Source of the DNA: Alphaproteobacteria bacterium
GTDB taxonomy: Bacteria > Pseudomonadota > Alphaproteobacteria > CAISOG01
Length of the DNA: 64,000 nucleotides
Reading direction: 5' to 3'
Assembly: GCA_044345375.1 (NCBI GenBank)
Contig: JBIJBF010000003.1
Location: 18,089-82,088, forward strand
Part shown: positions 9,301-47,730 of the stretch, piece after piece
Layout of the letters: the number at the start of each line of letters is the position of its first letter
How positions within the stretch are numbered: position 1 is the stretch's first letter
Translations under genes and position numbers: made by a program
Notes under the pieces: generated by a model
Told to the model about the DNA's origin: nothing
Seen by the model: the letters and a program-made list of their open reading frames with translations, nothing else
Databases searched by the model: none

Positions 9301-9350
9301 AACCACCCCGTCAGGCTTCGCCTGCCACCCCTCTGCAAGAGGGGAATTTT
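9301..9350 (+). repeat. REP-like palindromic intergenic element, copy 1
   Basis: accaccccgtcaggcttcgcctgccacccctctgcaagaggggaatttt contains two short hairpins (caggc-ttc-gcctg and cccctc...gagggg). Near-identical copies occur at 13087, 29357, 29536 and 47632. Confidence 0.8.
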
Positions 9351-9360
9351 ACGGCGTTCG

Positions 9361-10938
9361 CTAAGGAACCAAGTGCACAACCAAAGATTGCCCACTCATT
9401 TCCGCAGGTTTGGCCAGCCCCATGATCGCCAAAATGCTGGGCGCAATATCGGCCAGCCCCGCCGCGCCATCGACAGCCCGTGCAGCCAAGCCAAGGCGAT
9501 GCTGGCCATCCACCAACACCAGCGGTACGGGATTGGTGGTATGCGCGGTGTGGACAACCCCGGTCTCCTCATCCACCATCATTTCCACATTGCCATGATC
9601 AGCGGTGATCAGCAGCACGCCGTTTTGCGCGGCAAGGGCAGATTCCAACTGTCCCACACAACGGTCCACCGCCTCAACCGCTGCCACCGCCGCGGCCAAA
9701 TTGCCGGTATGGCCCACCATGTCGCCATTGGCGTAATTCACCACAATCAGGCTGTAGGTGCCTTGCGCAATCGCGGCCACCAATTTTTCGGTGAGTTCTG
9801 GCGCCGACATTTCGGGCTGCAGATCATAGGTCGCCACCTTTGGCGATGGCACCAGCAACCGATCCTCGCCCTCGCTAGGCTCATCCCGCCCGCCGTTCAT
9901 GAAAAAGGTGACGTGCGGGTATTTTTCGGTCTCGGCGGCGCGCAGTTGCTTTAGCCCTGCGGCGGCGACCACTTCGCCCAAGCCGTTCACAATCGTTTCT
10001 TTCTGGAAAATCACGCTGTACAGCGCGTTCAGCGCGGGATCGCTGTAATATTCCACCAGCCCCGTCACGTCGCTGAATCGCACAGGATTCGGCCGCGCAA
10101 AATCGGTAAAGTTCGGGTCGATCAGGGCGCGCAGGATTTGCCGCACGCGGTCAGAACGGAAATTGCCGATCAGCAGGCCATCGCCAGCTTGGATGCCGGT
10201 ATAGCCATCCAGCACGGTGGGCAGCACAAATTCGTCGGTCAAGCCAGCCTGATAGGCGGCCTCAATCGCAGCCTGAGCATTGCTGGCCACCGCGCCCTGT
10301 GCCGCCACGATCGCCTGATAGGCTTTTTCCACGCGGTCCCAGCGGTTGTCGCGATCCATGCCGTAGTAACGCCCGCCCAGCGTTGCGATCCGCCAGCCCG
10401 TTACACCTTTTAGCTGCTGCTGAAATTGGCCCAGATAGCCAAGGGCGCTTTGCGGCGCGGTGTCGCGGCCATCCAGCTGGGCGTGGACATTCACGAAAAC
10501 GCCAGTGGCGGTGATGATCTTGATCAGGGCGACCAAGTGGTTTTGGTGGCTGTGCACCCCCCCGTCCGACAGCAAGCCGAACAGATGGATGGTGGGATTG
10601 TCGGGATTGGCGGCCTTAACCGCCGCAAGCTGCGCCAGCAGGATGGGGTTGCTGGCCAGGCTGCCGCCGCTAATCGCCTGATCGATGCGGGGCAAATCCT
10701 GATAGATCACCCGCCCGGCGCCAATCGTCATGTGCCCCACCTCAGAATTGCCCATTTGCCCGGCGGGCAGCCCCACATGCAGCTCAGAGGCCTGAATCAG
10801 CCCATGGGGATGGTTGGCGATGATGCGATCCCAATTGGGGGTGTTGGCCTGGGCGATTGCGTTGTTGGCCCCCTCCCTGCGATAGCCCCACCCATCCAGA
10901 ATACACAGCACCACAGGCGTCACGGGGGGCTTAGACAT
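9361..10938 (-). CDS. gpmI: 2,3-bisphosphoglycerate-independent phosphoglycerate mutase
   Basis: 525 aa with N-terminal VLCILDGWG, metal-binding DGRD and ADHGN motifs characteristic of iPGM. Confidence 0.85.
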   Translation of the reverse strand: MSKPPVTPVVLCILDGWGYRREGANNAIAQANTPNWDRIIANHPHGLIQASELHVGLPAGQMGNSEVGHMTIGAGRVIYQDLPRIDQAISGGSLASNPILLAQLAAVKAANPDNPTIHLFGLLSDGGVHSHQNHLVALIKIITATGVFVNVHAQLDGRDTAPQSALGYLGQFQQQLKGVTGWRIATLGGRYYGMDRDNRWDRVEKAYQAIVAAQGAVASNAQAAIEAAYQAGLTDEFVLPTVLDGYTGIQAGDGLLIGNFRSDRVRQILRALIDPNFTDFARPNPVRFSDVTGLVEYYSDPALNALYSVIFQKETIVNGLGEVVAAAGLKQLRAAETEKYPHVTFFMNGGRDEPSEGEDRLLVPSPKVATYDLQPEMSAPELTEKLVAAIAQGTYSLIVVNYANGDMVGHTGNLAAAVAAVEAVDRCVGQLESALAAQNGVLLITADHGNVEMMVDEETGVVHTAHTTNPVPLVLVDGQHRLGLAARAVDGAAGLADIAPSILAIMGLAKPAEMSGQSLVVHLVP

Positions 10939-11177
10939 CGCATCGCATCCATCAATCAGGGTTTTAACTTGCGCCGACGCTAACGCAAAACCGGGCGCTG
11001 TTCAACTGGGTCAACACGCGGTGGCAGCGGTTTGGCGGCCGGTTTTGGCGATGGCTCGGGGTGACGAGCGGTGAAATCTTTAATTTAAAGTCAAAAATTT
11101 GAAACACTATTGACATAAAAACAAAAATTAACAACAATTAAACGTTTATTGTTAACTTTTATTTGTTTAAGGTAATT

Positions 11178-13001
11178 ATGATGAGTTTTAAAGTTCCGAA
11201 TTGGGTTACAAGGGCGGCCTTAAGTTTCGCAACGGTAGCGACGGTTTTCGTTAGTGGTGGTTCAGCGCTTGGGCAGGTGGCGGAGGCACAGCTGAATCCA
11301 GGGGATCTGCCACAGGGTACGACACCAACGTCAGAAATGGTTGAGGTTTCGACGGCGACGGCAGGGAATGCGGCGACGCCAGAGAAGCCTGAGGATGTGA
11401 TCACCGAACAAGCAATCGCAACTTTTGCAACAGATCAAAGGCTGCCAAGTTATGATGTTCAGGTGGTGGATCTGGCGATGACAGAAGTTGCGGCCAAATC
11501 AGTTGTGCAAGAACCCGTGCCGCAAGGGGGGGATATTGGTCAAGAATCAACAGTAATAGAAGAGAGTGGTGCATCCGGTGCAGCCTTATTGGGGGGTGAT
11601 ATTGCGCTTGGTTTGAACACTGGTGCTTCAAACTACAGCCTGCCACCACCAGCATTATCGGCAAAACCGGTTGTTTTGGCGAATAATTCCCAAACAAACA
11701 GTGCGCCCACAGATGTTGTTGAGGGTGTAACTTTTCGTCAACAAGCATTCATAACCCAACCAGAAAATGTTTCCGTAACAAGGTCTCCCGTGGTTACGGG
11801 TTTGGAAACAAAGATAGAGAAGCAGGTTGTTCCAGTATCATACACTGTTACACAACCAGGCGTAATAAGCGAGGTAATAGTCGGTCGGCCGGGTAATTTT
11901 AATGATTTTCCAAAAGCAATACAAGATCTTGCGGGAAAAATTCAGCAAAATGTTAAAAATCCTGATTTAAATACTATAAAAAGATATTTTGAAAACAACA
12001 TTTCGCCGCAAATTCAGATAGATGTTAGTAAGGTTATTGCTGAAGATCCAAGTATAATTAATAAATTAACGCAAGAACTACAATCTAAGCAAACAAAAAT
12101 TATTGTATCAACAGCATCTAAAACAAATTCTATAACAAAATACGAGGAAGTAGATATAATTAATACGATACCTGTGATTGGAGAACTAAAAATAACAAAT
12201 TTAACTACGGAAAAAGATCGAGTTAATTTATCTTGGCAAAACTCAAATATGGTACGATTGGGAGCAGTCGGTTTTGGTCCATATGGGAGTGCTGGGGAAC
12301 GAAATTTTGCTTTTCGCAGTGTGGCCGCAATAGATAATGTTATCTATGACCAAAGGTTTACTGGAATTAATCTTCCAACTGGTGAGCTGGGTGTTGCCGG
12401 ACAGTTGCCCTTAGGCAAGGAAACCACCGCTTTTTGGAGGGTTGGTGCAGATATAGTGGCGCCATTTTCACAAAAAAAGGTAACATCCACGATTCCTTTT
12501 AGCACAGCGCTCTCGATCGAGAATGTCAGCGGGTCTAAGGTTTTTATTGGAATCGAACCTGGATATGCAATTAACCCTAAGCTTACAAGCGGCGCCCAAA
12601 ACTTGACGCAGGCTAAAACGGCCGTTAATGCTGGGTTTGTGTGGAAATTAGGAACCGTTGGTTCTCTTAACGATCTCACCCTCGGAGGATCATTGGGCGA
12701 AATAGGAGAAAGTTTAGGTGCAGGCGGTGGGCGATACATTGAAGTTAATATGAGTGCCGTTTTTGGTGCCGCTGCTTCTGGTTCCTCGGGAAGAACGCCA
12801 TGGGCTAAACGGCAGCAGCAGCAGGCAATACAATTTATACAAGTTAAAATGTTTCCTGAAAACACTTTTGCATATGTTGGGTTTGAGCCTAAACCATTAA
12901 CTGACAAACTAAATACGCCAGAAAAAAAAGATGATATCACAGATATGGAGATGTACCGTATTTACAGCAGTCTGTCTCCTGTGGGCACTGCGAGCAGATA
13001 A
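11178..13001 (+). CDS. Secreted low-complexity surface or outer-membrane protein of unknown function (composition differs from its surroundings)
   Basis: ATG at 11178 preceded by an AAGG ribosome-binding site. Signal-peptide-like N-terminus (SFKVPNWVTRAALSFATVATVFVSGGSALGQVAEA). N-terminal third is rich in A/G/T/V/P. The middle of the gene (about 11880-12350) is strongly AT-rich with an N/K/I-rich translation. C-terminal half is Gly-rich and predicted beta-rich. AT-rich promoter region with TTGACA lies upstream, and a strong terminator follows. Confidence 0.5.
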   Translation: MMSFKVPNWVTRAALSFATVATVFVSGGSALGQVAEAQLNPGDLPQGTTPTSEMVEVSTATAGNAATPEKPEDVITEQAIATFATDQRLPSYDVQVVDLAMTEVAAKSVVQEPVPQGGDIGQESTVIEESGASGAALLGGDIALGLNTGASNYSLPPPALSAKPVVLANNSQTNSAPTDVVEGVTFRQQAFITQPENVSVTRSPVVTGLETKIEKQVVPVSYTVTQPGVISEVIVGRPGNFNDFPKAIQDLAGKIQQNVKNPDLNTIKRYFENNISPQIQIDVSKVIAEDPSIINKLTQELQSKQTKIIVSTASKTNSITKYEEVDIINTIPVIGELKITNLTTEKDRVNLSWQNSNMVRLGAVGFGPYGSAGERNFAFRSVAAIDNVIYDQRFTGINLPTGELGVAGQLPLGKETTAFWRVGADIVAPFSQKKVTSTIPFSTALSIENVSGSKVFIGIEPGYAINPKLTSGAQNLTQAKTAVNAGFVWKLGTVGSLNDLTLGGSLGEIGESLGAGGGRYIEVNMSAVFGAAASGSSGRTPWAKRQQQQAIQFIQVKMFPENTFAYVGFEPKPLTDKLNTPEKKDDITDMEMYRIYSSLSPVGTASR

Positions 13002-13013
13002 CCCCACACCCAA

Positions 13014-13063
13014 CTCCCCCCCCCTGTTCTGCCGTTAAAAGCAGGGCAGGGGGGTTTTTTTAA
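13014..13063 (+). terminator. Rho-independent terminator of the 612-aa gene
   Basis: cccccccctgttctgc-cgttaaaa-gcagggcagggggg GC-rich hairpin followed by a run of seven T. Confidence 0.75.
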
Positions 13064-13086
13064 AAGGGTCTATATTTGTGATGGAC

Positions 13087-13136
13087 AACCACCCCGTCAG
13101 GCTGCGCCTGCCACCCCTCCGCGGGAGGGGAATAGG
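13087..13136 (+). repeat. REP-like element, copy 2
   Basis: accaccccgtcaggctgcgcctgccacccctccgcgggaggggaataggg, sitting between convergent genes. Confidence 0.8.
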
Positions 13137-13168
13137 GTTGAACCCGCCCAAGGAGGAGAATTAAAAAC

Positions 13169-15592
<2,424 letters not shown>

Positions 15593-15600
15593 GGGGGGCG

Positions 15601-16488: not shown

Positions 16489-16536
16489 GCTTTAAGGTAG
16501 GCTTAGGCGGCGGGGGATCTCAGCTAAGAAAGGGCG

Positions 16537-18411
16537 TTAACTCCCCTGGCGACGCAGAAAGGCTGGGATTTCCAGATCCTTTGATGGATTGCCAGACGAA
16601 GGGTTGGGGGCAGCGCCCTGTGGAGAGGCGGCTGCGCCACCGTCATTGGCTCCGCCAAAACTGGGCTCAACCCCTGCTGGTTGCCCTGAACCCGCTGGAT
16701 TACGGCCTAAACGTGGGAAAGCCGCGTTGGTAACCCGCTCAAATAGACTGGGAGAGCGCCCGTGCAGATCATCGTTATAGGCTTGTTCGTCATGGTTGCC
16801 TTGGGCTGGCGCTGCCTGCTGATGGGCAGCCGATGGACGTGCACTGCTGGGCATGATGCGCGGTTCGGTTGCGGCGGGTGGGATAAAGGGATCATCCACC
16901 TGCGGCAAGCCGCGCTTAATCGGCGCAACATTGGCCGCGGCTGGTTGGGGCGCAGGGGATGGCCGTTCAGCGGCTTGTCTGCCCTCAGCATAGCCTTGGT
17001 TTTGTGAGCCTTGATTCTGCTGGCCACCAACGATCTCATCCCACCCCTCATCAGCGGCATGCGTGTAGCCAGATTGTGCGGATTCTCCACGGTTTGCCCC
17101 TTCACGATTGGTCTGGGCCACCCGTTCTGCAAAGCCGCTGACCGCACCAGTGTTGGCGGGTTGACGGGCGCCAAAGTCGGGCTGACGCGGTTCATTGGCT
17201 GGACTAGGCGCTGGCGCAGCAGTCTGCCCATGTGCTTGCTCGGGCGGAAAATCGCCGTAAGCACTGGGGCGATAGCCACGGGAAGAGGCGCCGCTGCTGG
17301 GTTGCTGAGACGCCTGCTGTTGCATTTGCGGTTGAAAATTGGGTTGAATGGGGGCGGCGGCTGCAGCTGGCCTGCGGAATGCTGGCGCAACATTGCCCGA
17401 AAAGTCGGTGTCGCCAATCGCACCTGGGCCACGATGGGTGGCCTCAATACCGGTTGCCACCACCGAAATGCGGATTTTGCCCGCCAGTTTTTCATCAAAG
17501 GTGGCCCCAAAGATGATGTTGGCGTTTGGATCCACCTCCTCCCGAATGCGGTTGGCGGCTTGGTCGGCCTCAAACAGGGTCATATCCAACGCGCCGGAAA
17601 CATGAATCAGGATGCCTTTGGCACCGCGCATCGACACATCATCCAACAGGGGGTTGGAAATCGCCGCCTCGGCCGCGCGAATGGCGCGATCAGCCCCATC
17701 GGCCTCACCCGTGCCCATCATCGCCTTGCCCATCTCGCTCATCACCGTGCGGATGTCGGCAAAGTCAAGATTGATCATGCCAGGCATCATAATCAGATCG
17801 GTAATGCCGCGCACCCCCTGGTACAGCACGTTATCGGCGGTGCGGAACGCATCCATAAAGGTGGTTTGTTCGTCGGCAATGCGAAACAGATTTTGGTTGG
17901 GAACGATGATCAGCGTGTCAACAAACTGCTGCATCTCCTCAATCCCAGCCTCAGCCAGGCGCATCCGGTGGGCGCCCTCAAAATGAAACGGCTTGGTGAC
18001 CACCCCAACGGTTAGAATGCCCTGTTCCCGTGCCGCGCGCGCAATTACGGGGGCAGCGCCGGTGCCGGTTCCGCCGCCCATCCCCGCGGTGATAAAGACC
18101 ATGTCGTAGCCCTGAATCGCCTCCAACACATCCACAATCGCCTCCTCAGCCGCCTCACGCCCAACATCAGGGCGGGCACCAGCGCCAAGACCCTTGGTGC
18201 GTTTGGTTCCCAGCTGCATCCGCAAGGGAGCCTTGGATTGCGACAGGGTTTGCGCGTCGGTGTTGGCCACCACAAAGTCCACCCCCTCAAGATTCAGGCG
18301 GATCATGTTGTCAACGGCGTTGGTACCACCGCCACCCACACCAACCACGGCGAGACGAGGTTTCAGCTCACCTTGAGCGTCAGGAATATTCAGATTCAAT
18401 GACATGGACAC
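16537..18411 (-). CDS. ftsZ: Cell division GTPase FtsZ with a long disordered C-terminal linker
   Basis: GGGTGTG tubulin signature, [13 protein letters not shown] and NTDAQ motifs. About 300 aa of P/Q/A-rich linker before the conserved C-terminal peptide ([11 protein letters not shown]), as is usual in alphaproteobacteria. No ftsA or ftsQ adjacent. Confidence 0.9.
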
Positions 18412-18586: not shown

Positions 18587-20344
18587 TTAGAGGTTGCGAC
18601 TAGCCAATTGGACAGAAGCTTTTTCCCACAGCTTTTCTAAAGTGCTACACGGGTACACATAGAAAGCTTTATGGATCTGAGAGATAGCGCTTGAGCTAGG
18701 CAGATTGCGGCCGTATGGCGCGTCGTTATCAGAATCGTCTAAAACTTTGGTCAGCAAACCTAAGCAGACCATAGCTGGGTTTGCTTTCATGTGTTCGTTT
18801 GTATCGCGGTCTTGGGATACAACAATTTCCCATAAATTTTTATAGTCGATCTGAGAAGATGTGGCATTCACTGGCCATGCATCAGCGAAATTACACCCAA
18901 CTGGAGGAACAAAAGCATCATCCCTAAGTTCCTCGTAAGCCTGCGCAAGCAGCTCACGCAAGGCGGTAAAAACCTCTGGTTCCTTTACCCATGGTATAAG
19001 CGTTTCAAGCGCTGTACAGCGAATGATAAAACATTCTGGCTTATCATTGGGATCATCATTTTGGATGACCTCAATCATTGCGCTGCGAACCTCAGGGTGC
19101 TCTCCGTAAGGTATAAGGGATTTTGCTGCTGCTTCGCGAACCCATAAATCATCGTCAGTTTTTAGGGCTTCAATCAGTGCGCTCCTGGCTTCAGGATACT
19201 CTCCGTAAAATTTAAGGGATTCTGCCGCTGCGTGGCGAACACAGAAATCCGGATCGGTTTGCAGTGTCTCAATCAGTGCGCGGGCAGCCCAACGACTAGG
19301 CGTTTTGGGGCGCGAAAAAGCGTGAGCCGCTTGCGTGCGAAGCCAAAGATTCTTACTGTTCTGCATGATGTCAACAAGTACGCATTCAACCCCCGGATAG
19401 GTGTTGTAACGCGTAAGAGCTTTAATCGCTGCTTCGCGCACCGACCAATCCCGATCCTTCTGCGCCGTGTGCAACAGTTGATCGATAGCTTGGTCATCCT
19501 TATCTCCGTAATAAGCAAGGAATTCAACCGCTTCCTTGCGTTCCCACGTATGATACTCTTCTGCGCCTATCCACGGAGCATAATAAGAACCATTCACTAT
19601 GTTGATCAGTTCCTTGATAGCCTGATCGGTATAATCTTCGAACCGCCTAAGGGATTCAGCCACCTTTTCGCGAATCCATGTTTTCTCCTCCCTATTCCCC
19701 AGTATCTTAAGCAATTCTTGGGCAACCAACTTATCTTGAGGTGGGTAAGGCGCAAGAGCGTCAATTACTGCGTCAACCAACAGCGTCTCCTCACGCTCAT
19801 ATTTCAGTATCTCAAGCAGTGCGGGGGTAACCTCAGGATAATTTCTAAGATTTTCAAGCGATCTAGCCACTTCTAAGCGAATCCAGATTTCCTTATCTTT
19901 GTTTTTTAGTATTTCAAGCCGTTCGCTGAGAGACAGATCATCCAGCTTCAAAGGTTCAGTCGTTGTTAGGTTAATTGGGGGGTAAAGCTTTGTGTATGTA
20001 TAATTCATTGTTTTAAGTAGTTCAGGGATGCTTTGAAGATCATTTTGAAAGTTTGCGAAAAATTTGGCCGCTTCCGTGACAGCCGATGACGGTAACGTAG
20101 GGCCAGACTGTTGGATTAAATCCTCAAGATGCTGTTGGTGTTGATTTCTCGGTTTAGCGGGTTCATTCCTTTGATTGTAAAGTTTTGTATATGTATCATT
20201 GAGTGCTTGAAGCAGTTCAGGGATAATCTGAGGATCATTTTGAATTTTTGCGAAAAATTTGGCTGCTTCCGTGATGGCCCATGGCCGCAACTTAGGATCC
20301 GACTGCTGGATTAAAGCCTCAACCTGTTGGTGTTGATTTTTCAT
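18587..20344 (-). CDS. HEAT/PBS-lyase repeat protein (eukaryote-like repeat protein) with an N-terminal tandem duplication
   Basis: Low-GC gene. Repeated E/PEVRxAAxxALxxYG HEAT-like units, and two N-terminal copies of about 65 aa (NQHQQ..TEAAKFFA..IPELL..YTKLY). I prefer the start at 20344, which has an AGGAAAA ribosome-binding site, over the ATG at 20365. Confidence 0.6.
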   Translation of the reverse strand: MKNQHQQVEALIQQSDPKLRPWAITEAAKFFAKIQNDPQIIPELLQALNDTYTKLYNQRNEPAKPRNQHQQHLEDLIQQSGPTLPSSAVTEAAKFFANFQNDLQSIPELLKTMNYTYTKLYPPINLTTTEPLKLDDLSLSERLEILKNKDKEIWIRLEVARSLENLRNYPEVTPALLEILKYEREETLLVDAVIDALAPYPPQDKLVAQELLKILGNREEKTWIREKVAESLRRFEDYTDQAIKELINIVNGSYYAPWIGAEEYHTWERKEAVEFLAYYGDKDDQAIDQLLHTAQKDRDWSVREAAIKALTRYNTYPGVECVLVDIMQNSKNLWLRTQAAHAFSRPKTPSRWAARALIETLQTDPDFCVRHAAAESLKFYGEYPEARSALIEALKTDDDLWVREAAAKSLIPYGEHPEVRSAMIEVIQNDDPNDKPECFIIRCTALETLIPWVKEPEVFTALRELLAQAYEELRDDAFVPPVGCNFADAWPVNATSSQIDYKNLWEIVVSQDRDTNEHMKANPAMVCLGLLTKVLDDSDNDAPYGRNLPSSSAISQIHKAFYVYPCSTLEKLWEKASVQLASRNL

Positions 20345-20648
20345 ATTTTTTCCTGATTTGTTCATAATGCGTAAACAAACTTATTGATAGATTCAATATA
20401 TTACAATACATAATATTTACATATTTAAGGGGCTTATTTGTTTGGCTTGCTGCCCTATAGAAAACCAACCCTGTGGCTGTTGCGGCGGCGTTGGGCTCGT
20501 GGATAGTCGCTAAAGCGTACGAGCAAAGCGCCTTAGCCGCAGTGTTGCAGACGGGGCGGTAAGAATCTTGCGTAATGTCTTGCCAAAGCAGGTCAAGATG
20601 GGGTAACTGTTAAAAAGTTTCCCTAGTTATTGCATTGGATTTTTTTCT

Positions 20649-29356: not shown

Positions 29357-29590
29357 TTAATTCCCCTCCCGCGGAGGGGTGGCAGGCGAAGCCTGACGGG
29401 GTGGTTGTTTTAAAAGTTTGTCAGGCGCAGCCTGCCTCCTTTAGATATTTGTCAGGCACAGCCTGACGGGGTGGTTCTTATCTTGGTGGTGTGATGCGCT
29501 GCAGGCAGCACCATGTTTGAATTGTTTGTTACAAGGACCACCCCGCCCTTCGGGCACCCCTCCGCAGGAGGGGAATTTAAGGGGAATTAA
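29357..29590. repeat. Cluster of REP-like elements: one inverted full copy, two partial inverted copies and a variant direct copy
   Basis: 29357-29406 is the reverse complement of the REP consensus. 29418-29440 and 29449-29477 are partial copies. 29536-29577 is a variant in which gcccttcgggc replaces the central hairpin. The cluster lies between the mgtE start and the rnpB 3' end. Confidence 0.75.
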
Positions 29591-29597: not shown

Positions 29598-30028
29598 AGA
29601 TGTCGGTTGGCCTGTAAGCTGGGTTTTGTCTGGGCGGTGAACCGCCCTGGATGGCCATTCATCTTGGGGTGGAATTGCTTCCACACCTCTAGCAACCGAC
29701 CCGCAGAGCCATCGTGGAAACCCGATTGAGTCCCCGAAAAACGGGGGCTCGCGCCCTGCCTATTTGGTTTTGCTCCGGATGGGGTTTACCGCGGCCACGA
29801 TCGGTTGCCCAATCGGCGGTGCGCTCTTACCGCACCTTTTCACCCTTACCGCCCAAGGGTCGAAACCCAAGGACGGCGGTATCGTTTCTGTGGCACTTTC
29901 CCTTGAATTGGCGTTTTCAGCCAACCCCGCTGGGCGTTACCCAGCATCCTGCTTCCATGGAGCCCAGACTTTCCTCTCACCAGCCGAAGCTGAGCAAGCG
30001 GCCATCCAGCCAACCGACGCCGCCATCG
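29598..30028 (-). ncRNA. rnpB: RNase P RNA, bacterial type A
   Basis: The minus strand carries GAGGAAAGUCUGGGCUCC (P4 5' strand), GGUAAGGGUGAAAAGGUGCGGUAAGAGCGCACC (the P10/11-12 consensus), GGUAAACCCCAUCCGGAGCAA and ACAAAACCCAGCUUA (P4 3' strand). P1 is formed by GUCGGUUGGC near 30019 pairing with GCCAACCGAC near 29605. Ends are estimated to within about 5 nt. Confidence 0.9.
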
Positions 30029-31705: not shown

Positions 31706-32179
31706 ATGACCAAAGATAGCAAAATTAAAAAAAATCAAACAAAAACGACTGAAGTTAAGCCAAAGCAAAAAACGCCAAAACCATTGCAGGTTGCAAAAGA
31801 AAATACTGTACCACCTGATCCTGATGTTGACCATGGTGGCAGCCAGCTTAGCCAAGAACTGAACGAATTGTTGGTTGCGGTGGCCAAGGGGCAGCCGTTA
31901 TTGGCGGGTGATAAGATGGGCGAGGTGGCGACGGTGTATCCAACCCTGGACCAACGATTAAAGGTGATGACGATGCTGTTAAAACAACAGGAGCAGGAAA
32001 TGGGCGACATGGTAGAAAAGGATGGCGGTGATGGACGAAAAAAAGCCAAAGCCGCGAAAATCCGCGCGGGCTATAGCGCCGATGAACTTCGCGAACTGCT
32101 CAGCCGCCATTTGGCTGAGCTGTCAACCAAAAAGCCGGCGGGCAAAACTGCTGGCCAGCCTGAGCGATCAGGAGGTTGA
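31706..32179 (+). CDS. Lys-rich small protein, possible small terminase or DNA-binding subunit; first gene of the phage-derived cluster
   Basis: 157 aa. K-rich N-terminus (MTKDSKIKKNQTKTTEVKPKQKTPKP) and a central coiled-coil. The 3' 158 nt overlap the terminase ORF out of frame, and an A7 run sits at the junction. Confidence 0.4.
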   Translation: MTKDSKIKKNQTKTTEVKPKQKTPKPLQVAKENTVPPDPDVDHGGSQLSQELNELLVAVAKGQPLLAGDKMGEVATVYPTLDQRLKVMTMLLKQQEQEMGDMVEKDGGDGRKKAKAAKIRAGYSADELRELLSRHLAELSTKKPAGKTAGQPERSGG

Positions 32180-33395
32180 ACGGCTGTATTACAGCTGGGC
32201 CTTTTGGGCGCGCCCTGAACAGCTGCCGCCGGCCGGTTTGTGGCGGGTGTGGCTGATTCTGGCGGGACGGGGCTGGGGCAAAACCCGAACCGGCGCCGAA
32301 TGGGTTAGCTGGCAGGTGCAAACCGGGCAGGCCAGCCGTATCGCCCTGGTCGCCGCAACGCTGCATGAGGCGCGCAGCGTGATGGTTGAGGGGGCCAGCG
32401 GCTTGTTAAGCTGCAGCCCGCCGTGGAACCGCCCGCGCTATGAGCCATCGAAACGGCTGCTGACCTGGCCCAACGGCGCGGTGGCGCAGTGTTTTGGCGC
32501 TGAGGAGCCGGACAGCCTGCGCGGACCGCAGTTTGATGCGGCCTGGTGCGACGAATTGGCCAAATGGCCCCGTCAGGGTGCCTGGGATCAGCTGATGTTC
32601 GGGCTGCGTTTGGGGCAAAACCCGCAGGTGGTGGCAACGACCACGCCCCAGCCCGTACCGCTGATCGAAAGCCTGGCAAAAAAGGCTGAGGTGGTGGTGA
32701 CAAGGGGCAGAACGCTGGACAACCGTGCCAATCTGGCGGCGGGATTTTTGAGCGAATTGGAGCAAACCTATGCCGGCACTTGGCTGGCTGCGCAGGAGTT
32801 GGAGGGCGAGCTGCTTAGCGATGCGCCAGACACCCTGTGGCCCGCTAAGATTTTGGCGGAGTCGGTGATCGAGCCGGCGTCTGCGCCGCCGATGGTGAAA
32901 ACGCTGCTGGCGATCGACCCTGCCGTAACCAGCCATAGCAGCAGCGACGAAACCGGGCTGGTGGTGGTGGGATTGGGGGAGGATGGGGTGTTTTATGTGC
33001 TGCAAGATGCCAGCGACCGGCTGCGGCCAGAGGTGCTGGTGGAACGGGTGGCGGCGCTGGTTGCCCTGCACAGCATTGGTCAGGTGGTGGTTGAGGTCAA
33101 TCAGGGCGGCGACTGGCTGCTGGAGGCCTTGAATAGTGCAACCTTGGATGCCGTGGTCCAGCCGGTGCGCGCGGTTCAGGACAAATGGACGCGGGCGGAA
33201 CCGGTGGCCATGCTGTATGCGCAGGGTCGGGTGAAGCATGTGGGCCGTCTGCCAACGCTGGAGGCGCAGCTGCGGGCCTGTCGTCGTGGGACTAGGAGCG
33301 GAGGAATGGATCGGGTGGATGCGCTGGTTTGGGCGATTCGCAGTTTGAAACAGGCCAGCGTTAAGCAGCGCGGGTTTGCGGTTCGGGTGGTTTAG
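32022..33395 (+). CDS. Phage terminase large subunit (GTA g2-like TerL)
   Basis: LLASLSDQEVERLYYSWAFWARPEQLPP...WRVWLILAGRGWGKTRTGAEW is the N-terminal signature shared by alphaproteobacterial GTA-type large terminases. An ATPase Walker region and a C-terminal nuclease-like DxD pattern are present. The exact start is uncertain (32022 or 32082). Confidence 0.8.
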   Translation: MAVMDEKKPKPRKSARAIAPMNFANCSAAIWLSCQPKSRRAKLLASLSDQEVERLYYSWAFWARPEQLPPAGLWRVWLILAGRGWGKTRTGAEWVSWQVQTGQASRIALVAATLHEARSVMVEGASGLLSCSPPWNRPRYEPSKRLLTWPNGAVAQCFGAEEPDSLRGPQFDAAWCDELAKWPRQGAWDQLMFGLRLGQNPQVVATTTPQPVPLIESLAKKAEVVVTRGRTLDNRANLAAGFLSELEQTYAGTWLAAQELEGELLSDAPDTLWPAKILAESVIEPASAPPMVKTLLAIDPAVTSHSSSDETGLVVVGLGEDGVFYVLQDASDRLRPEVLVERVAALVALHSIGQVVVEVNQGGDWLLEALNSATLDAVVQPVRAVQDKWTRAEPVAMLYAQGRVKHVGRLPTLEAQLRACRRGTRSGGMDRVDALVWAIRSLKQASVKQRGFAVRVV

Positions 33396-39131: not shown

Positions 39132-39163
39132 CACTTTTATCAAAACAACAAAGGAATGATGAG

Positions 39164-40387: not shown

Positions 40388-40402
40388 TTGTTAAGTGCAT
40401 AG

Positions 40403-40446
40403 GGGGGGGCTGAGCAGCGTTTTGCTTGGCCCCCTTTTTGTTTTTT
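40403..40446 (+). terminator. Hairpin plus T-tract immediately downstream of the capsid gene
   Basis: GGGGGC-(16-nt loop)-GCCCCC followed by tttttgtttttt. It sits between the capsid stop (40387) and the next gene start (40462). Confidence 0.6.
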
Positions 40447-40461
40447 GGAGGGAGCAAGGCG

Positions 40462-41625: not shown

Positions 41626-41657
41626 CGATTGATTTCATTTTTTTAAGGAGAAAGCCT

Positions 41658-43238
41658 ATGACGATTGTGTTGCGAACGGTTAAGGGCGCGCCCCTGACCA
41701 TCACGGAAATTGACGGCAATTTTAGCCAGTTGACGGACAGGCTGACGGCGCTGGAGCAGAATCCGCCGCTGGCGGAAAGCATTGGTGCGATCAGCGTGCA
41801 GGGCGATCAGCTGAGCATTCTGGGCAATCGGGGCAGCAATTTTGGCCAATTTGCCCTGCCGGTTGCGCAATTGGTGGCGCGTGGGGTTTGGGCAACCGCC
41901 ACCGCCTATGCCAAGCTGGAGATGGTCAACGCGCCCGATGGCAATGGCTATATTTGCCTAACCGCGCATACCAGCGGGGTGTTTGCCACCGATTTGGCCG
42001 CCAACCGTTGGGCTAAGCTGGTCAATGCTGGCACGGCTGGTGTAACCGGTAAGGTGTTAACCGGCGCAGGCCTAACCGGTGGCGGTGATTTGTCGGTGGA
42101 TCGAACCCTAAGCTTAGCATCGATGCCTGCCAACAGCCTAAAGGGCAACAACAGTGCCAGCACGGCGGTGCCGGTCGATTTAACCGCCGCGCAGGCCGCC
42201 GCCATGCTGCCAGCGATGCTTGGCGACAGCGGCAGTGGTGGGGCTAAGGGGTTGGTGCCAGCCCCGGCGGCTGGGGATGCGGCGGCGGGCAAATTCCTGA
42301 AAGCCAATGGCACTTGGGCGGTGCCTGCAGGCGGCGGTGGGGGCGGTAGCGTTGGTGGAAGCTCAGGGCAGCTGCAGTACAACAGCGCTGGCGTTTTTGC
42401 TGGCGCCACCAATCTTAAGGTGATCGGCAGTGGCGCGGGGTTGAATTTTGGCGGGGTGGCGCTGCAGCCTGCGGCCAGTGCGGGCAGCCTGAATCTGTAT
42501 GCCAACAACGAGCTTGGCCAGGCTTTCTTAAGCCTGCGCAGCGATACCGCCCCCGAAGCGTTTGTGCAGGAATGTTTGGGGCATCGCAGTGTGGCGATCA
42601 TTTTGCCCAGCAGCGGCGGGTTGGTGGCCTCATTTGGGGTTAACACCAGCAACGCCGGCAGCATTACCCACAGCAGCAGCGCGGCGATAGGCTATTGGAT
42701 CGCCAATGCCACAACAGCGACGGCCAATAATGATGTCTATTTTGCCACGGCGGCCAATTATTTTTACCGCAACCTTGGGTTTTACCACGCCGCGACCCTG
42801 AACTATCCCGATGCCAGCTATGGCGCTGGCGCGACTGGAACCCGCATCGGCGTTGGGTTGGTGGCCAATGCCGCCAGCAATCTGTTGGCCGGTGATACCC
42901 TATTGACCGCTGGCTGTGGTTTTCAGTATTCGACCAACCGTGGGGATAGCAATTGGCAGCTGGTTAGCTTTGACGGCACCACCCAAACCACGGTGAACAC
43001 CGGCATGGTTTTTGCCCCCGCCAAGCTTTATCAGTTTGAGCTGTTTGCCGCGCCCAATGGCGGCAGCCTGAATTGGCGGATCAAAAACCTGACCGACAAC
43101 AGCATGCAGAGCGGGGTGGTCACCACCAACCTGCCGCCAGCCAGCACCGGACTGATGATGATGGCGGGTGTGCGCAACCTAGGCGCCAGTATCCGCAACA
43201 TGCAAATGAAACGCATGTATGGAACTAGCTCTATTTGA
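41658..43238 (+). CDS. Phage tail fibre protein
   Basis: Motifs LTGGGDLSVDRTLSL, KGNNSASTAVPVDLT and GLVPAPAAGDAAAGKFLKANGTWAVP, a poly-Gly hinge (AGGGGGGSVGGSSG), and QLQYNSAGVFAGATNL are all typical tail-fibre repeats. Confidence 0.75.
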   Translation: MTIVLRTVKGAPLTITEIDGNFSQLTDRLTALEQNPPLAESIGAISVQGDQLSILGNRGSNFGQFALPVAQLVARGVWATATAYAKLEMVNAPDGNGYICLTAHTSGVFATDLAANRWAKLVNAGTAGVTGKVLTGAGLTGGGDLSVDRTLSLASMPANSLKGNNSASTAVPVDLTAAQAAAMLPAMLGDSGSGGAKGLVPAPAAGDAAAGKFLKANGTWAVPAGGGGGGSVGGSSGQLQYNSAGVFAGATNLKVIGSGAGLNFGGVALQPAASAGSLNLYANNELGQAFLSLRSDTAPEAFVQECLGHRSVAIILPSSGGLVASFGVNTSNAGSITHSSSAAIGYWIANATTATANNDVYFATAANYFYRNLGFYHAATLNYPDASYGAGATGTRIGVGLVANAASNLLAGDTLLTAGCGFQYSTNRGDSNWQLVSFDGTTQTTVNTGMVFAPAKLYQFELFAAPNGGSLNWRIKNLTDNSMQSGVVTTNLPPASTGLMMMAGVRNLGASIRNMQMKRMYGTSSI

Positions 43239-43282
43239 TGGGGAAAATTGTTTTTAATATTAACATTTAATTAGTAAATCTC

Positions 43283-43546
43283 ATGGATAAAATAACCATC
43301 AATAATGCACTAAATCGTCTTCTTGAGCAGGCCGCAAAACGCGGCGCGCAACAAGCCCTGGCTGAGCTGGGGTTGCATGACCGCAATGCTGGAGAAGATA
43401 TGCGTGATTTGCGGGGGTTGTTGGATGCTTGGCGCACCGCAAAGCGTACCATCGGACAAACCCTGCTGAGAACGTTAACGGTTATGTTGCTGATCGGCAT
43501 GCTGACGGGCGTTTTGATCAAGTTAAAGATGGTTGCTTCGAACTAA
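43283..43546 (+). CDS. Putative holin or small membrane protein of the lysis cassette
   Basis: 87 aa. Charged N-terminus, a single C-terminal transmembrane helix (LLRTLTVMLLIGMLTGVLI) and a basic tail. Immediately upstream of the endolysin and overlapping it. AT-rich start context. Confidence 0.45.
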   Translation: MDKITINNALNRLLEQAAKRGAQQALAELGLHDRNAGEDMRDLRGLLDAWRTAKRTIGQTLLRTLTVMLLIGMLTGVLIKLKMVASN

Positions 43547-43580
43547 TTCATTTGGGAGCAGGAATTTCGGGAGGATGGAG

Positions 43581-44069
43581 ATGACGGATGGATTCGACTG
43601 GGCCATTGAAGTTGTTTTGCGGCACGAGGGTGGGTATGTGGACGATCCAGATGATCATGGCGGTGCCACCAATTTTGGCATTTCGCAACGCCAATACCCC
43701 GATTTGGATATCAAAAAACTGACGCGTGAGGATGCGATTGCTATCTATCGCCGCGATTGGTGGCAGGCCTATGGCTATGGTCAGATTACAGACATGATGG
43801 TGGCCACCAAAGTGTTGGATTTATCGGTGAATATGGGGCCAGGCACCGCCCATCGCTTGACGCAGCGGGCACTGCGCGCGGTGGGGTTGATGGTTTCTGA
43901 GGATGGGGTGTTGGGGCCGGTGACGCTGGGAGCGTTGAATCAGGTGATGCCGTCAAACCTGTTAAGCGCGCTGCGGGCTGAGGCGGCGGGGTATTACCGC
44001 TGTTTGGCGCTTAAGCAAAAATCTTTTGAAAAATTTCTAACAGGCTGGTTAAATCGTGCCTATGCGTGA
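43581..44069 (+). CDS. GH108-family endolysin (N-acetylmuramidase) with a C-terminal PG_binding_3 domain
   Basis: FDWAIEVVLRHEGGYVDDPDDHGGATNFGIS is the GH108 catalytic signature. The C-terminal part (LGALNQV...AEAAGYYRCLA) resembles the peptidoglycan-binding module. GGGAGG ribosome-binding site before the ATG at 43581. Confidence 0.8.
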   Translation: MTDGFDWAIEVVLRHEGGYVDDPDDHGGATNFGISQRQYPDLDIKKLTREDAIAIYRRDWWQAYGYGQITDMMVATKVLDLSVNMGPGTAHRLTQRALRAVGLMVSEDGVLGPVTLGALNQVMPSNLLSALRAEAAGYYRCLALKQKSFEKFLTGWLNRAYA

Positions 44070-44109
44070 ATTCATGTTCCTTTCATGAAAGTTTTGTTAG
44101 AATAGCCGA

Positions 44110-45864
44110 ATGGTTGATCAATCTGACAATATAGATCCAACGGCTGCACCCCCTGAGGAGGCGGCCGCGCCTATCGATGCGGGCGCGGTTGGCTTTAATC
44201 CACGCCGCCGTTCGGCGCTGAGGTTTCAGGCACCGCTTGTAACGGTTAAAGAGGAGGGGGTGGAGACAAGGGAATCCCCATCCGCACAGGACGCGTCGCC
44301 GGCTAAAGATCCGCAGCAGGCGGCCGCTTCCGTTGCTGGTGATTCGGTGGAAAAAACGGCCGTGGAATCGGTAACGGTTGTTGAAGATCCTGTTAATCCT
44401 GATTTGACCCGTCCGGCCGATTTTCCTAAGGCGACCTCGCCCAAAGAAATGGTGCCTGAGCCCAAAAGGGGCGGGGATGCCCCCCTGGCTCCACCGCCGT
44501 CCAGTGTTGTGACCAGGCCATTTGCCGGCAAATCTTTTGTTGGCCCGACGGAAGGGTCAGTGGCGGGTGATCAAAAGGCCGATAGGGCAAGTTCAACCAG
44601 CGTGCAAGAGCCAGTGGTTGAGGCAAGCAAGGGTGGCGGGGCTGCCCCAACCGTTGCTGAAACCGCCGAATCGGTGCCCGATTTTCAAGACTGGCTGCGA
44701 CAGCGGCAGGAGGCGTTGCGAAAAGCGCGCGAACGTGCCCTGAGACGTGAAGAGGCTTTGGGGGATGCGGCCAAAACGGTTCAAGACTCTGCATCCGATT
44801 CCCCCAAAGAGGTTGCGGAGCGGCAGGAACCTGTTTTGCAGACGATCGGGAGTCAATCCACCGCCAATGCTGCCGAAAATCAGGGCAATGAAAGCAAAAC
44901 GGCGGCGGCACCGATCGGCTTTAACCCCAATCGGGGCAAGCGTTCAACCGCGTTTAACATTCCCCCGCCTGCAGATGCGGTGGTATCCACCACGCCTAAG
45001 GCTAAGGCCGAATCAACCGCGGCTGAGGAGCCGTTGGCGGCCAGCCGTGCGGCGCCACAAGATGACGGGCCAAATCAGGCTTTTGATCTCAACGAAGCCG
45101 CCCTAGGCACGCATGGCACGGTGGAAAAGGTTCTCAGCTCAACCGAACTGATCGAAACGCCCGCGCTGAAAGCGTTGAAAAATTTTATGGATGGCAAAGC
45201 GCCGGATAAGGAAAACGCGGCTGCGGTTGCGGTCAAATCCAAGAAAAGTTTTTTTAGCATCAAAAAAATCCGGCAAAGGCTTTATGACTTTGTTTTTTGG
45301 GCTGTAAGTTTTCTGGTGCTGGCTGGTGGATGGACGTTGTTTGTCTATGGAATCATGGTGTTGTTTATTGCGATCAACCCCATTCCTTTTGTGGATGCTG
45401 GTGGCAATGTGTTGTGGAGTTTTGATGCGCGCTACACAAGCCACTGGATCGGGCTGCGGCAGTATTTTAACGCTGGTGCGGTGATTCCATGGTCGTTGGT
45501 GTGGGCGGTGGTGTTGGCTTTTTGTGTGTGGTTGTTGCCTGGAATTGCGCTTTTAAAGCAAGGGATTCAGCCGACCAGCTCGGTTTTCAAGCGTCAGCTT
45601 GATCGGCGTTGGTATCAGATAAAGCGCTTGTGGAGAAAGCCCGATGAGGCCGAAAAGGTGTTGTTAAAAACATCGATGGCCGATATTGAGGGGATGTTGA
45701 CGCAAGCCCGTAAGGAGGCTGAGGCGGATCTGAAAAAACGTAAGGTGGCCGCGGCGGGCGGCACCCCAGGTGGCAGTCAGGCCAATTCTATGGCGCCGGC
45801 GGGCCCAAGCCCCGCCGCGATGGCCAGTGCCGCGGCCAGCAGAGGGTCTGGCGGCAATGGATAG
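44110..45864 (+). CDS. Membrane protein of unknown function with a long disordered N-terminal region
   Basis: 584 aa. About 400 aa of P/A/E/S/T-rich low complexity that includes two GFNP.R..S.AF motifs and a coiled-coil, then about four transmembrane helices (FVFWAVSFLVLAGGWTLFVYGIMVLFIAI...WSLVWAVVLAFCVWLLPGIALL) and a basic, Gly-rich tail. Confidence 0.35.
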   Translation: MVDQSDNIDPTAAPPEEAAAPIDAGAVGFNPRRRSALRFQAPLVTVKEEGVETRESPSAQDASPAKDPQQAAASVAGDSVEKTAVESVTVVEDPVNPDLTRPADFPKATSPKEMVPEPKRGGDAPLAPPPSSVVTRPFAGKSFVGPTEGSVAGDQKADRASSTSVQEPVVEASKGGGAAPTVAETAESVPDFQDWLRQRQEALRKARERALRREEALGDAAKTVQDSASDSPKEVAERQEPVLQTIGSQSTANAAENQGNESKTAAAPIGFNPNRGKRSTAFNIPPPADAVVSTTPKAKAESTAAEEPLAASRAAPQDDGPNQAFDLNEAALGTHGTVEKVLSSTELIETPALKALKNFMDGKAPDKENAAAVAVKSKKSFFSIKKIRQRLYDFVFWAVSFLVLAGGWTLFVYGIMVLFIAINPIPFVDAGGNVLWSFDARYTSHWIGLRQYFNAGAVIPWSLVWAVVLAFCVWLLPGIALLKQGIQPTSSVFKRQLDRRWYQIKRLWRKPDEAEKVLLKTSMADIEGMLTQARKEAEADLKKRKVAAAGGTPGGSQANSMAPAGPSPAAMASAAASRGSGGNG

Positions 45865-45878
45865 GGGGGACGCCTAAA

Positions 45879-46430
45879 ATGCAGGGGGTGTTTGCGCATG
45901 GCCAGACGTTGGCGGCCTTTTTGGCGGGATCTTTGGCGGGCGTGCAGGTGCTGGCCCTGGTGATCTTGGTCGGTTGTTTGCTGGCGCATTTGGTGTGGGA
46001 CTACCGCGAATTGATTTTGCCCGATGTGCTGAATCTTTTGATTTTGGCTACCGGCCTGGCTGTTGCCGCTTTTGCGCCGCTGCCTGATTGCAGCTGGAGC
46101 CAATCATGGCAGGGGTTTTTGATCGCCCTGGCCAGCGCATGGGGGTTTTACGAGTTGGTTTGGTGGGTGCGGGGGGAGGAAGGTTTTGGGTTTGGCGACG
46201 TCAAGTTGTTTGCCGCTGCAGGCAGTTGGTTGGGGCCAGCCAAGCTGATTGGGATGGTGCTGATTGGATCGCTGGCATCGCTGTTCATCATCGGGTTGCT
46301 GGGGCTGTGTTTGCGCCGTTGGCATATACGGGTGGAATTGCCCTTTGGCCCTGGGCTTATCCTAGGCTTTTTGATGATGCTTGCCTTTCCAGAGTTGATT
46401 GACCACAGCTTGCAGTGGTTGCTGTTTTAG
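45879..46430 (+). CDS. cpaA: A24-family prepilin peptidase (CpaA/TadV-like)
   Basis: 183 aa, polytopic, with the GFGDVKLFAAAGSWLG aspartyl-protease motif. Confidence 0.65.
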   Translation: MQGVFAHGQTLAAFLAGSLAGVQVLALVILVGCLLAHLVWDYRELILPDVLNLLILATGLAVAAFAPLPDCSWSQSWQGFLIALASAWGFYELVWWVRGEEGFGFGDVKLFAAAGSWLGPAKLIGMVLIGSLASLFIIGLLGLCLRRWHIRVELPFGPGLILGFLMMLAFPELIDHSLQWLLF

Positions 46431-46523
46431 GTAGCCGCAACGCCTATGTGCCGCGGTTTTTATCAAAAAGGTTGCTTCAATCATCGGTCAGGATCATAAT
46501 AAAAGATTATAGGATAAAAGCAG

Positions 46524-47606
46524 ATGAAATTTTTGGATCAGGCGAAGGTTTATATTGCGAGTGGGGCAGGGGGGGCAGGCTGCCTGAGCTTTCGCCGGGA
46601 AAAATGCGTGGAGTTTGGCGGCCCTGATGGGGGCGATGGTGGACGTGGCGGCGATGTGATTGCGCGCGCGGTTAGCAACAGCAACACCCTGATCGATTAC
46701 CGCTATCAGCAGCACTACAAAGCCAAAACCGGTGGGCATGGGATGGGAAAAGATCGGCATGGTGCCAAGGGCGCTAGCGTGATCATGAATGTGCCGATTG
46801 GGACGCAAATTTATGAGGAGGATCAGGAAACCCTGCTGGCCGATTTGACCGTTGAGGGGCAAGAGGTGGTGTTGGCCAAAGGCGGCAAGGGTGGCATGGG
46901 CAACGCGCATTTCAAATCCTCAACCAACCAGGCGCCGCGTCATACCACGCCAGGCAAGCCCTGCGAGGAAAAAACCATTTTTCTGCGGCTGAAACTGATT
47001 GCCGATGTCGGCTTGGTAGGGCTGCCCAACGCTGGCAAATCCAGTTTGTTGCGGGCGGTAAGCCAGGCCAAGCCGAAAGTTGCCGACTACCCCTTTACCA
47101 CGTTGAACCCGCATTTGGGGGTGGTGACGGTGCATGACGATCTTTTTGTGATGGCGGATGTGCCAGGATTGATTGAGGGCGCGCATGAGGGGGTGGGGCT
47201 CGGCGTGCGGTTTTTGGGGCATGTGGAGCGTTGCCGCGTGCTGATTCATCTGGTAGACGCGTTGCAAACATCGGTGGTCAAATCCTATCGCACCGTGCGC
47301 AAGGAGATTGCGGCCTATAGCGAAGAACTGGCGGAAAAGCCGGAACTGGTGGTGTTAAGCCGGGTGGACATGTTGAGTGATGCTGAGCTTAAGAAGCAGC
47401 AAGAAAAGTTAAAGCGGGCGCTCAAAAAACCCGTGTATCTGATGTCCAGCATGACCGGCCGGGGGGTTGATCCCCTGATGCAGGGGGTGCTTGAGGCGGT
47501 AAAAGCGGCCAATCGTTTGTCAGATGACGAGGATCGGGAGGCGGCTGACGGCGCTGATACGGGGTGGAGCCCTGTTCCGTGCCCTGTGGTTGCCGCGCGC
47601 AGATAA
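46524..47606 (+). CDS. obg: GTPase Obg/CgtA
   Basis: N-terminal [26 protein letters not shown] Obg fold with Gly-rich repeats, plus G-domain motifs GLPNAGKSS and DVPGLIEGA. Confidence 0.9.
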
Positions 47607-47631
47607 ACCGATGTTTCGGCTTGTCCGAAAG

Positions 47632-47730
47632 GACCACCCCGTCAGGCTTCGCCTGCCACCCCTCCGCAAGAGGAGGGGAATTAAGAGGGCCGTGCAGGGG
47701 TGCCCGAAGCGGGACCACCCCTGCAGTTAA
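47632..47730 (+). repeat. REP-like element, copy 6, plus an adjacent partial variant
   Basis: gaccaccccgtcaggcttcgcctgccacccctccgcaagaggaggggaattaag, followed by gggaccacccctgcag. Lies between the convergent obg and glnA. Confidence 0.8.

Follow-up and report, generated by a model that had tools for sequence, protein, structure and literature searches.

A two-hairpin repeat module in an alphaproteobacterial genome and its association with DUF559 gene cassettes across bacterial phyla

A short repeat with two hairpins recurs in a 64-kb stretch of an alphaproteobacterial contig (JBIJBF010000003.1, positions 18,089 to 82,088 of the forward strand; the whole stretch is called the window here, and positions are counted from its first letter). 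Comparison with other genomes identified the repeat as a module of 42–48 bp that is present, almost letter for letter, in many bacterial phyla and that brackets genes for the Vsr-like protein family DUF559 in some of them. Our preferred reading, to which we give a probability of about 0.6, is that the copies in the window, single or in pairs, represent non-autonomous ends of a selfish element that spreads horizontally. Its full form would be a DUF559 endonuclease cassette bracketed by the module.

The unit consists of (A)ACCACCCC, hairpin 1, hairpin 2 (ACCCCTCC-NNN-GGAGGGG) and a terminal AAT(T). Two types are distinguished by hairpin 1, which in the window reads GTCAGGC-TNC-GCCTGCC in type A and GCCC-TTC-GGGC in type B. 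Four loci in the window hold five full copies and several fragments. A preliminary description of this DNA had listed most of these, and every copy that it claimed is present where it was placed; its consensus was also right, and folding of the unit with DNA parameters predicted both of the hairpins that it had proposed (-11 to -12.5 kcal/mol, z -2.1 to -3.3). With up to three mismatches allowed, the 35-mer consensus has 4 matches in the window (0.00 expected), and the 15-mer ACCACCCCGTCAGGC has 5 exact matches (0.18 expected). Three fragments, at 9273–9283, 13142–13162 and 29579–29587, are additional to the preliminary description. A module-by-module fuzzy scan of the 64 kb found no further copies, and none were present in 13.6 kb of adjoining sequence of the same species (approximately 9.2 kb to the right and 4.4 kb to the left).

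Distribution and conservation of the module

An exact 30-base pattern, ACCACCCCGTCAGGCNNCGCCTGCCACCCCTC, searched against one genome per species, matched at least 116 stretches on contigs assigned to 12 or more phyla. The host groups are Alpha-, Beta- and Gammaproteobacteria, Desulfobacterota, Chlorobiota, Cyanobacteria, Deinococcota (Deinococcales), Chloroflexota, Roseiflexaceae, Firmicutes (Oscillospiraceae and other Clostridia), Fibrobacterota (Fibrobacteres), Planctomycetota (Planctomycetia), Nitrospinota, Calditrichota and Endomicrobia. As the matches include complete chromosomes, isolates (Vibrio fujianensis and Nitrosomonas mobilis) and contigs longer than 100 kb, misbinning does not explain this spread. 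The 116 listed loci, picked by the A-type pattern and labelled here by L-numbers, show no similarity to the window outside the element. When their copies were aligned together with the flanks, the element had a sharp start and a sharp end between unrelated sequences, and the part that lies outside the search pattern (C-loop-GGAGGGGAAT) was nearly always there. Among 199 copies with distinct flanks, the only flanking signal was a weak preference for A at position -1 and for T after GGGGAAT, and no target-site duplication of 2–5 nt was found above chance. REP (repetitive extragenic palindromic), BIME (bacterial interspersed mosaic element), ERIC (enterobacterial repetitive intergenic consensus) and RPE (Rickettsia palindromic element) repeats are normally lineage-specific. 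That a 48-bp module is nearly identical in Cyanobacteria, Firmicutes and Proteobacteria implies that its horizontal transfer was both very recent and very wide, and that it has a sequence-specific partner.

The module appears to be undescribed. Rfam 15, searched with eight copy-rich loci and the window at the gathering score and at E values up to 10, did not match the element; a literature search for its 15-mers found no paper that prints the sequence, and the literature on DUF559, COG2852, YcjD and Vsr-like proteins with hsdS contained no description of repeats around DUF559.

Conservation is distributed unevenly within the module. A and B copies were compared by module-wise fuzzy matching; MAFFT puts the two hairpin 1 lengths out of register. 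The stem of hairpin 2 is invariant and its loop of 2–3 nt is free. Hairpin 1 occurs in 54 distinct variants, 43 of which have a perfectly paired stem of 4 bp or longer, as against 6.8% of shuffled sequences, and it covaries through 16 different stem sequences. Its loop is T-N-C in 125 of 128 A copies, both N positions having been free in the search pattern. Read on the opposite strand (ATTCCCC...GGGGTGGT), this loop forms GC-GNA-GC, and B copies with loops of 4 nt have G-N-N-A there; GCGNAGC is an extraordinarily stable DNA mini-hairpin motif (PMC13037366). The covariation and this loop together indicate that hairpin formation matters and hint at a single-stranded or cruciform DNA form, and the invariance of both the single-stranded ACCACCCC and the hairpin 2 stem argues for sequence-specific recognition. 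We also considered the T·C mismatch of hairpin 1 as a mimic of a Dcm/Vsr site, and rejected this because the arms contain no CCWGG.

The element can also form satellite-like arrays. In a gammaproteobacterial chromosome (OZ255827.1, L045) nine copies lie within 8 kb, in tandem units of approximately 73–75 nt that consist of the element and a semi-conserved 25-nt spacer.

DUF559 cassettes and their restriction-modification habitat

All-against-all clustering of the 2,241 open reading frames (ORFs) from the 116 loci yielded a single protein family that recurs across phyla near the copies, namely DUF559 (PF04480, E = 5e-29). The protein shows a relationship to E. coli YcjD that falls short of the curated cut-off, and among solved structures the closest is that of an endonuclease-like protein (PDB 3hrl, E = 2e-14). 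It is encoded at 14 of the 116 loci, with 37–70% amino acid identity to the L041 query (53–70% in 13 of the 14), and all 14 genes retain the catalytic-looking motif E-x-D-G-x-x-H. Proven homing endonucleases, free-standing ones included, are known among proteins with Vsr-like folds (PMC3384342).

The geometry of these cassettes is constant: an upstream copy on the minus strand (of variable type, X), the gene, and a B copy on the plus strand, with the inverted modules bracketing a unit of approximately 0.5 kb. The upstream copy (ATTCCCC...GGGGTGGT), which is occasionally direct instead of inverted, ends 3–30 nt before the ATG of a protein that starts MRxTxxYKSLP(Y/F)NP. It often contributes the stop codon of the gene that has been invaded, or a Shine–Dalgarno-like GGAGGGG. 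Where this copy is of type A, its CCTGAC supplies the preceding gene with an in-frame TGA; in L218 the hsdS stop and the DUF559 start overlap (ATGA), and in L215 the sequence GGAGGGGAATTATG places a Shine–Dalgarno-like run (GGAGGGG) ahead of the start. The downstream direct B copy encodes the C-terminal tail, (N/D)HPAL(T/S/A)GTPPxEGN, with the stop codon after GGGGAAT. A protein search retrieved 1,423 homologues, and nearly all of the best 120 carry the tail HPAL-x-GTPP-x-EGN, in many cases as tandem repeats, although this count is biased by a query that itself contained the tail. Named sources of homologues are Chlorobaculum, Thiomicrospira, Caldilineaceae, Fimbriimonadaceae, Competibacteraceae and Endonucleobacter. 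When three homologues were chosen by protein alone, all three proved to be flanked by copies of the module. In a Fimbriimonadaceae locus (L219, 5401–5665) the DUF559 gene ends in six tandem in-frame B copies of 45 nt, encoding NHPGLTATP..EGNG repeats, and the hairpin 1 stem there, GGCC/GGCC, is a further compensated variant.

The DNA of the DUF559 core is 64.6% identical among cassettes, and 42% identical at third codon positions, whereas in the adjoining copies the fixed modules reach 97–99% identity, a figure somewhat inflated by the detection threshold. The modules are thus far better conserved than the core, and, as one of them is itself coding, the constraint acts on the nucleotide sequence and not on the peptide.

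Type I restriction-modification (R-M) genes adjoin at least 10 of the 14 cassettes, and four of five independently retrieved places lie between hsdS and hsdR. Some cassettes sit inside such genes: in L041 and L042 the entire cassette is in frame within hsdS, at the linker before the second target-recognition domain, and in L079 it is in frame within hsdR. Cargo-less doublets are likewise found in frame in HsdS (L033 and L061), HsdR (L061 and L066) and a Mod-like methylase (L044), and 28 of 216 copies overall are internal to ORFs, with 60 or more codons to either side. A survey of predicted invertible loci found 'DUF559 domain-containing protein' enriched with an odds ratio of 14 (PMC9881135), which fits genes bracketed by inverted repeats. 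The possibility that in-frame copies act as ribosome-bypass inserts of the T4 gene 60 type was rejected, as there are no matched take-off and landing codons; the resemblance is an analogy only.

Proposed origin of the copies and competing explanations

A cycle of the following kind could account for the copies in the window. The DUF559 nuclease would recognize or cut the module, either as duplex or as extruded hairpins, and repair may then copy the cassette or the bare module to new sites in a homing-like manner. Recombination between flanking direct doublets could delete the gene and leave behind solos and doublets such as those in the window, where the copies would have become fixed in the population at harmless intergenic 3' sites and would now be decaying to fragments; any terminator or insulator effect that they exert is probably incidental. 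In the window, the pair at 29358–29578 has the geometry of cassette ends and encloses element fragments alone, and the copies at 9301 and 13087 are solos with small adjacent relics.

Several observations weigh against this account. As the A-type pattern chose the 116 loci, the conservation of that part of the module is circular, and the search left only the 3' half of hairpin 2, the B copies and the flanks free of bias. We know of no DUF559 protein with demonstrated nuclease activity or a known target. Neither the window nor the 13.6 kb of additional flank contains a DUF559 gene, and a partner in this genome is therefore unproven. In the sponge symbionts Porisulfidus and Oxydemutatoraceae the module lies within a longer repeated unit, with no DUF559 at those loci, so other routes of amplification exist. 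The plasmid and E. coli collections contained no DNA match to the element, although the low-complexity filter may contribute to this result, and plasmid homologues of DUF559 are all below 42% identity; among viral contigs, matches were confined to two small ones, so phages are no obvious vector. The orientation of copies relative to local GC skew was unbiased (61 versus 42, p = 0.08; by locus 36 versus 34), which leaves a replication-fork, single-strand mechanism unsupported. Finally, no pair of empty and filled sites was found, and mobility is inferred from distribution only. In the search for empty sites, the closest Obg in the JGI metagenomes was 73% identical, the contig retrieved through mgtE ended within the repeat, and the pair of homologous loci that matched best within the 116 revealed a 5'-truncated copy and not an empty site. 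Among contigs of the same species (98–99.9% identity) no site was empty and every contig carried copies.

In the sponge-symbiont loci (for example L008, L010, L036 and L084) the module stands in a conserved repeat of the form ...gtgcagaaccaccaca[element]gtactaatgcagacactttttcaacag..., which suggests that it was captured by, or fused with, another repeat family.

The preliminary description proposed that the repeats act as terminators or mRNA stabilizers, and a role of this kind, in which RNA hairpins serve the host as terminators, 3' stabilizers or operon insulators and are kept in the window for that purpose, would be in keeping with the convergent 3' ends at three of the four loci, the stable hairpins, the fixation of the copies in every strain sampled and the B copy that follows rnpB; the end of the 9301 copy, GAGGGGAATTTTA, is also weakly terminator-like. 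However, no copy passed a terminator scan of 9000–14000, the tails are AAT(T) followed by unrelated sequence with no U-run, and a separate canonical terminator at 13019–13060, which belongs to the upstream gene, already precedes the 13087 copy. Copies lie in either orientation, those within ORFs of other genomes are read through, and no Rfam family matches. Structure alone would suffice for a terminator, yet neither the stem of hairpin 2 nor the single-stranded ACCACCCC varies across phyla. We therefore consider the idea weak and a host-serving role unlikely. Some of the same evidence bears on transcription of each copy into a structured non-coding RNA or riboregulator, which the two hairpins and the covariation of hairpin 1 might suggest. 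The lack of any Rfam match even at E values up to 10, the absence of a preferred orientation relative to genes, the translation of copies inside ORFs and the GCGNAGC loop, which favours a DNA form, make this scarcely plausible.

It is conceivable that the repeat belongs to the REP/REPIN-RAYT or IS200/IS605 type and that an HUH (Y1) transposase from another part of the genome mobilizes it in single-stranded form, with DUF559 as no more than a frequent passenger or neighbour. Short hairpins, inverted doublets, the absence of target-site duplications and a DNA mini-hairpin loop motif on one strand would all fit, and TnpB-like ORFs, identified from their translation alone, occur at three loci. These three ORFs, however, lie over 1.5 kb away from the copies, clustering of the 2,241 ORFs gave no HUH transposase family that recurs, the GTAG head of REPs is missing, orientation shows no bias with GC skew, and REP families are lineage-specific whereas this sequence is common to many phyla. 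This origin is, in our estimation, quite unlikely. The phrase 'dispersed REP/MITE-like palindromic element' in the preliminary description is apt as a description, but the assignment to either family does not hold.

The same description took the repeats as possible marks of rearrangement breakpoints. It had correctly noted flanking genes outside their usual operon context (lpxD-fabZ-lpxA with no lpxB after it, and a lone ATP synthase beta gene), and identities of 48 bp dispersed in a genome could in principle allow ectopic recombination. The one nearer relative that was found, from a metagenome (L210), also has a different gene beside glnA, an isocitrate dehydrogenase-like ORF as judged by eye from its translation, and no element there. 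This relative is distant (85% identity in GlnA and 62% in PyrD), so rearrangement is to be expected regardless of the repeat, and the pyrD-glnA order on the other side is conserved. Nor was there a rearrangement at any copy among strains of the species, and 48 bp is near the lower length limit of RecA-dependent exchange. We found no evidence that the repeats caused rearrangement, and regard it as very improbable that they mark or cause it.

With the copies read instead as shed ends of a selfish nuclease cassette, comparison with known systems is instructive. Like the REP/REPIN-RAYT system of Proteobacteria, the module is a short imperfect palindrome with many dispersed, mostly intergenic copies, often in inverted doublets, enriched at gene 3' ends and without target-site duplications, and its copies flank the gene of the presumed mover enzyme. 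The differences are that its 5' end is (A)ACCACCCC, that the flanked gene encodes a Vsr-like DUF559 nuclease and not an HUH tyrosine transposase, that the sequence is near-unchanged across phyla where REPs are species-specific, and that copies also occur in frame within genes. Classical miniature inverted-repeat transposable elements (MITEs) derived from DDE transposases differ in having target-site duplications, and the only inverted ends in the window are those at 29358–29578. RPEs resemble the module in having in-frame translated copies, as seen here in HsdS, HsdR and Mod of other genomes (the window copies all lie outside genes), but they are 100–150 bp long, specific to Rickettsia and without a known partner gene, unlike a pan-bacterial, DUF559-linked module of 42–48 bp. 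With IS200/IS605 elements and their hairpin-ended MITE derivatives (PATEs) the module shares hairpin ends, the lack of target-site duplication and small non-autonomous derivatives; it differs in having no TnpA or TnpB adjacent to the copies, no strand bias and no conserved tetranucleotide target.

There are parallels, too, with free-standing Vsr-like/EDxHD homing endonuclease genes (I-Bth0305I, Hef) and with the mobA-gene 60 cassette of phage T4, a single mobile unit made up of a homing endonuclease gene and a 50-nt hairpin insert. The shared features are a small gene for a Vsr-fold nuclease that behaves as a selfish insert in or between host genes, short in-frame tails that it gives to the invaded ORF, and its travel as one cassette with a hairpin-bearing sequence of approximately 50 nt (PMC3384342; PMC3239194; bioRxiv 10.1101/2022.08.31.505936). 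A nuclease of that fold with its catalytic residues kept is present in the related loci, and not in the window. The homing systems, by contrast, belong to phages, have a single specific target gene each and lack dispersed copies without cargo, whereas here there are inverted-repeat ends, bacterial chromosomes of many phyla, a preference for R-M genes as targets and ends that multiply alone, and homing is inferred.

Selfish hairpin repeats that have a partner nuclease are a kind of element already known; the partner, the identity across phyla and the R-M habitat are new. The data point to DUF559, a widespread family that has been without a function to date, as the partner, and to R-M operons as the home. 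We suggest, tentatively, that the module and DUF559 might together constitute an undescribed class of mobile element: a hairpin-bounded Vsr-like nuclease cassette that crosses phyla, prefers R-M genes, where it is often in frame, and sheds autonomous-looking 48-bp ends, which multiply in some genomes. If so, this would be the first biological role for the large DUF559 family, and the 48-bp module could be the recognition or homing site of the nuclease, or an immunity insert that destroys the site. Confirmation would establish a new type of selfish element and account for the unusual tails and insertions, rich in proline and glycine, that are annotated in many HsdS, HsdR and DUF559 proteins, as well as for the scoring of DUF559 genes as 'inversion targets' in surveys (PMC9881135); it would also provide a defined DNA substrate for assays of DUF559 activity. 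For the window itself the message is more modest, namely that its repeats would be decaying selfish inserts and not evidence for rearrangement.

Copies and gene context in the window

The organism is a deep-branching alphaproteobacterium known from metagenomes only, as judged from its GlnA, for which the next-best homologues after that of L210 are 68–73% identical (the named ones being Rhodospirillaceae-like or unclassified Alphaproteobacteria), and from the presence of TrcR. Contigs of the same species have the same copies in the same places, and the sole differences among strains are a few loop substitutions in the 13087 copy. The copies, all intergenic, lie between lpxA and gpmI, between a 612-aa ORF and the ATP synthase beta gene, between mgtE and rnpB, and between obg and glnA. 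As the preliminary description had it, most are between convergent gene ends, this being so at all loci except the third, which has the 3' end of rnpB on one side and the 5' end of mgtE on the other. Approximately 10 of the 59 gene junctions in the window are convergent, so that three of four is a modest enrichment (p ~0.02, n = 4).

The full A-type copy at 9301–9348 (+ strand) reads AACCACCCC, GTCAGGC-TTC-GCCTGCC, ACCCCTC-TGCAA-GAGGGG and AATT, and stands between lpxA (+, ending at 9247) and gpmI (-, ending at 9361). Eighteen nucleotides upstream, at 9273–9283 on the minus strand, lies AATTCCCCTG, a short inverted relic of a hairpin 2 end; there are approximately 10 such 9-mer matches in 128 kb (both strands), which makes a chance adjacency unlikely.

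A second full A-type copy, at 13087–13134 (+), has the hairpin 1 loop TGC and lies 3' of the canonical intrinsic terminator, before the 3' end of the ATP synthase beta gene (-). In two other strains its hairpin 1 loop is TTT and its hairpin 2 loop is altered. It is followed in tandem by a B-like, internally deleted relic, ACCCGCCCAAGGAGGAGAATT, at 13142–13162 (+).

The mgtE/rnpB locus is the most complex. An inverted full A-type copy at 29358–29406 (-), which matches the 35-mer consensus exactly, and a B-type copy at 29536–29578 (+), with hairpin 1 GCCC-TTC-GGGC, form an inverted pair with their ACCACCCC ends inward, in the geometry seen around DUF559 genes in other genomes. The 129 nt between them are element debris, including a fragment consisting of hairpin 1 only (29420–29436, GTCAGGC-GCA-GCCTGCC; no strand assigned) and a half copy of ACCACCCC and hairpin 1 with a perfect 7-bp stem (29451–29476, -). 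A duplication of the tail, GGGGAATT, directly follows the B-type copy at 29579–29587 (+), and the whole, 29536–29587, lies about 12 nt past the 3' end of rnpB (29599–30017, -).

After obg (+), the A-type copy at 47632–47682 (+) has a GAG insertion of 3 nt that extends hairpin 2 to CCCCTCC/GGAGGGG with a 6-nt loop, so that pairing is kept; five further contigs of the species have the same sequence. Directly past the glnA stop, at 47692–47726 (no strand assigned), is a long hairpin derived from the element, GTGCAGGGGTG-CCCGAAGCGGG-ACCACCCCTGCAG, in which a B-like hairpin 1 stands between GGGGTG and CACCCC. The two form a degenerate A(+)/B(-) doublet, and 47625–47735 folds at -27 kcal/mol (z -3.5). 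In L210, the spacer after glnA (3393–3514) has a classical bidirectional terminator, GGCCGCTTGG...CCAAGCGGCC with a T-run, in place of this element pair.

Some other features of the window are recorded here. The sole Rfam match in the window is rnpB, and a tRNA scan found none. The 612-aa ORF (11163–13001, +) has no Pfam match; in two other strains 11206–12996 cannot be aligned, although both sides are 96–99% identical, and their ORF is 587 aa long, which indicates a hypervariable gene. The ATP synthase beta-like gene (13169–14839, -) stands alone, with radC adjoining and no gamma or epsilon neighbours, and its product has an N-terminal extension of approximately 80 aa. The FtsZ gene (16537–18411, -) is separate from ddl/ftsQ (approximately 57.5–59.7 kb), and this scattering of cell-division genes fits a generally rearranged gene order in the lineage. 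A 592-aa ORF (18587–20365, -) contains internal tandem repeats of 99 nt and 195 nt with 76–80% identity (families D1, D2 and D5), which suggests that it encodes a repeat protein. From 32022 to approximately 44000 (+) there is a block resembling a phage or gene transfer agent, which begins with a large terminase gene (32022–33395), continues as a run of co-oriented ORFs and ends with DUF6127 and a GH108 lysozyme.

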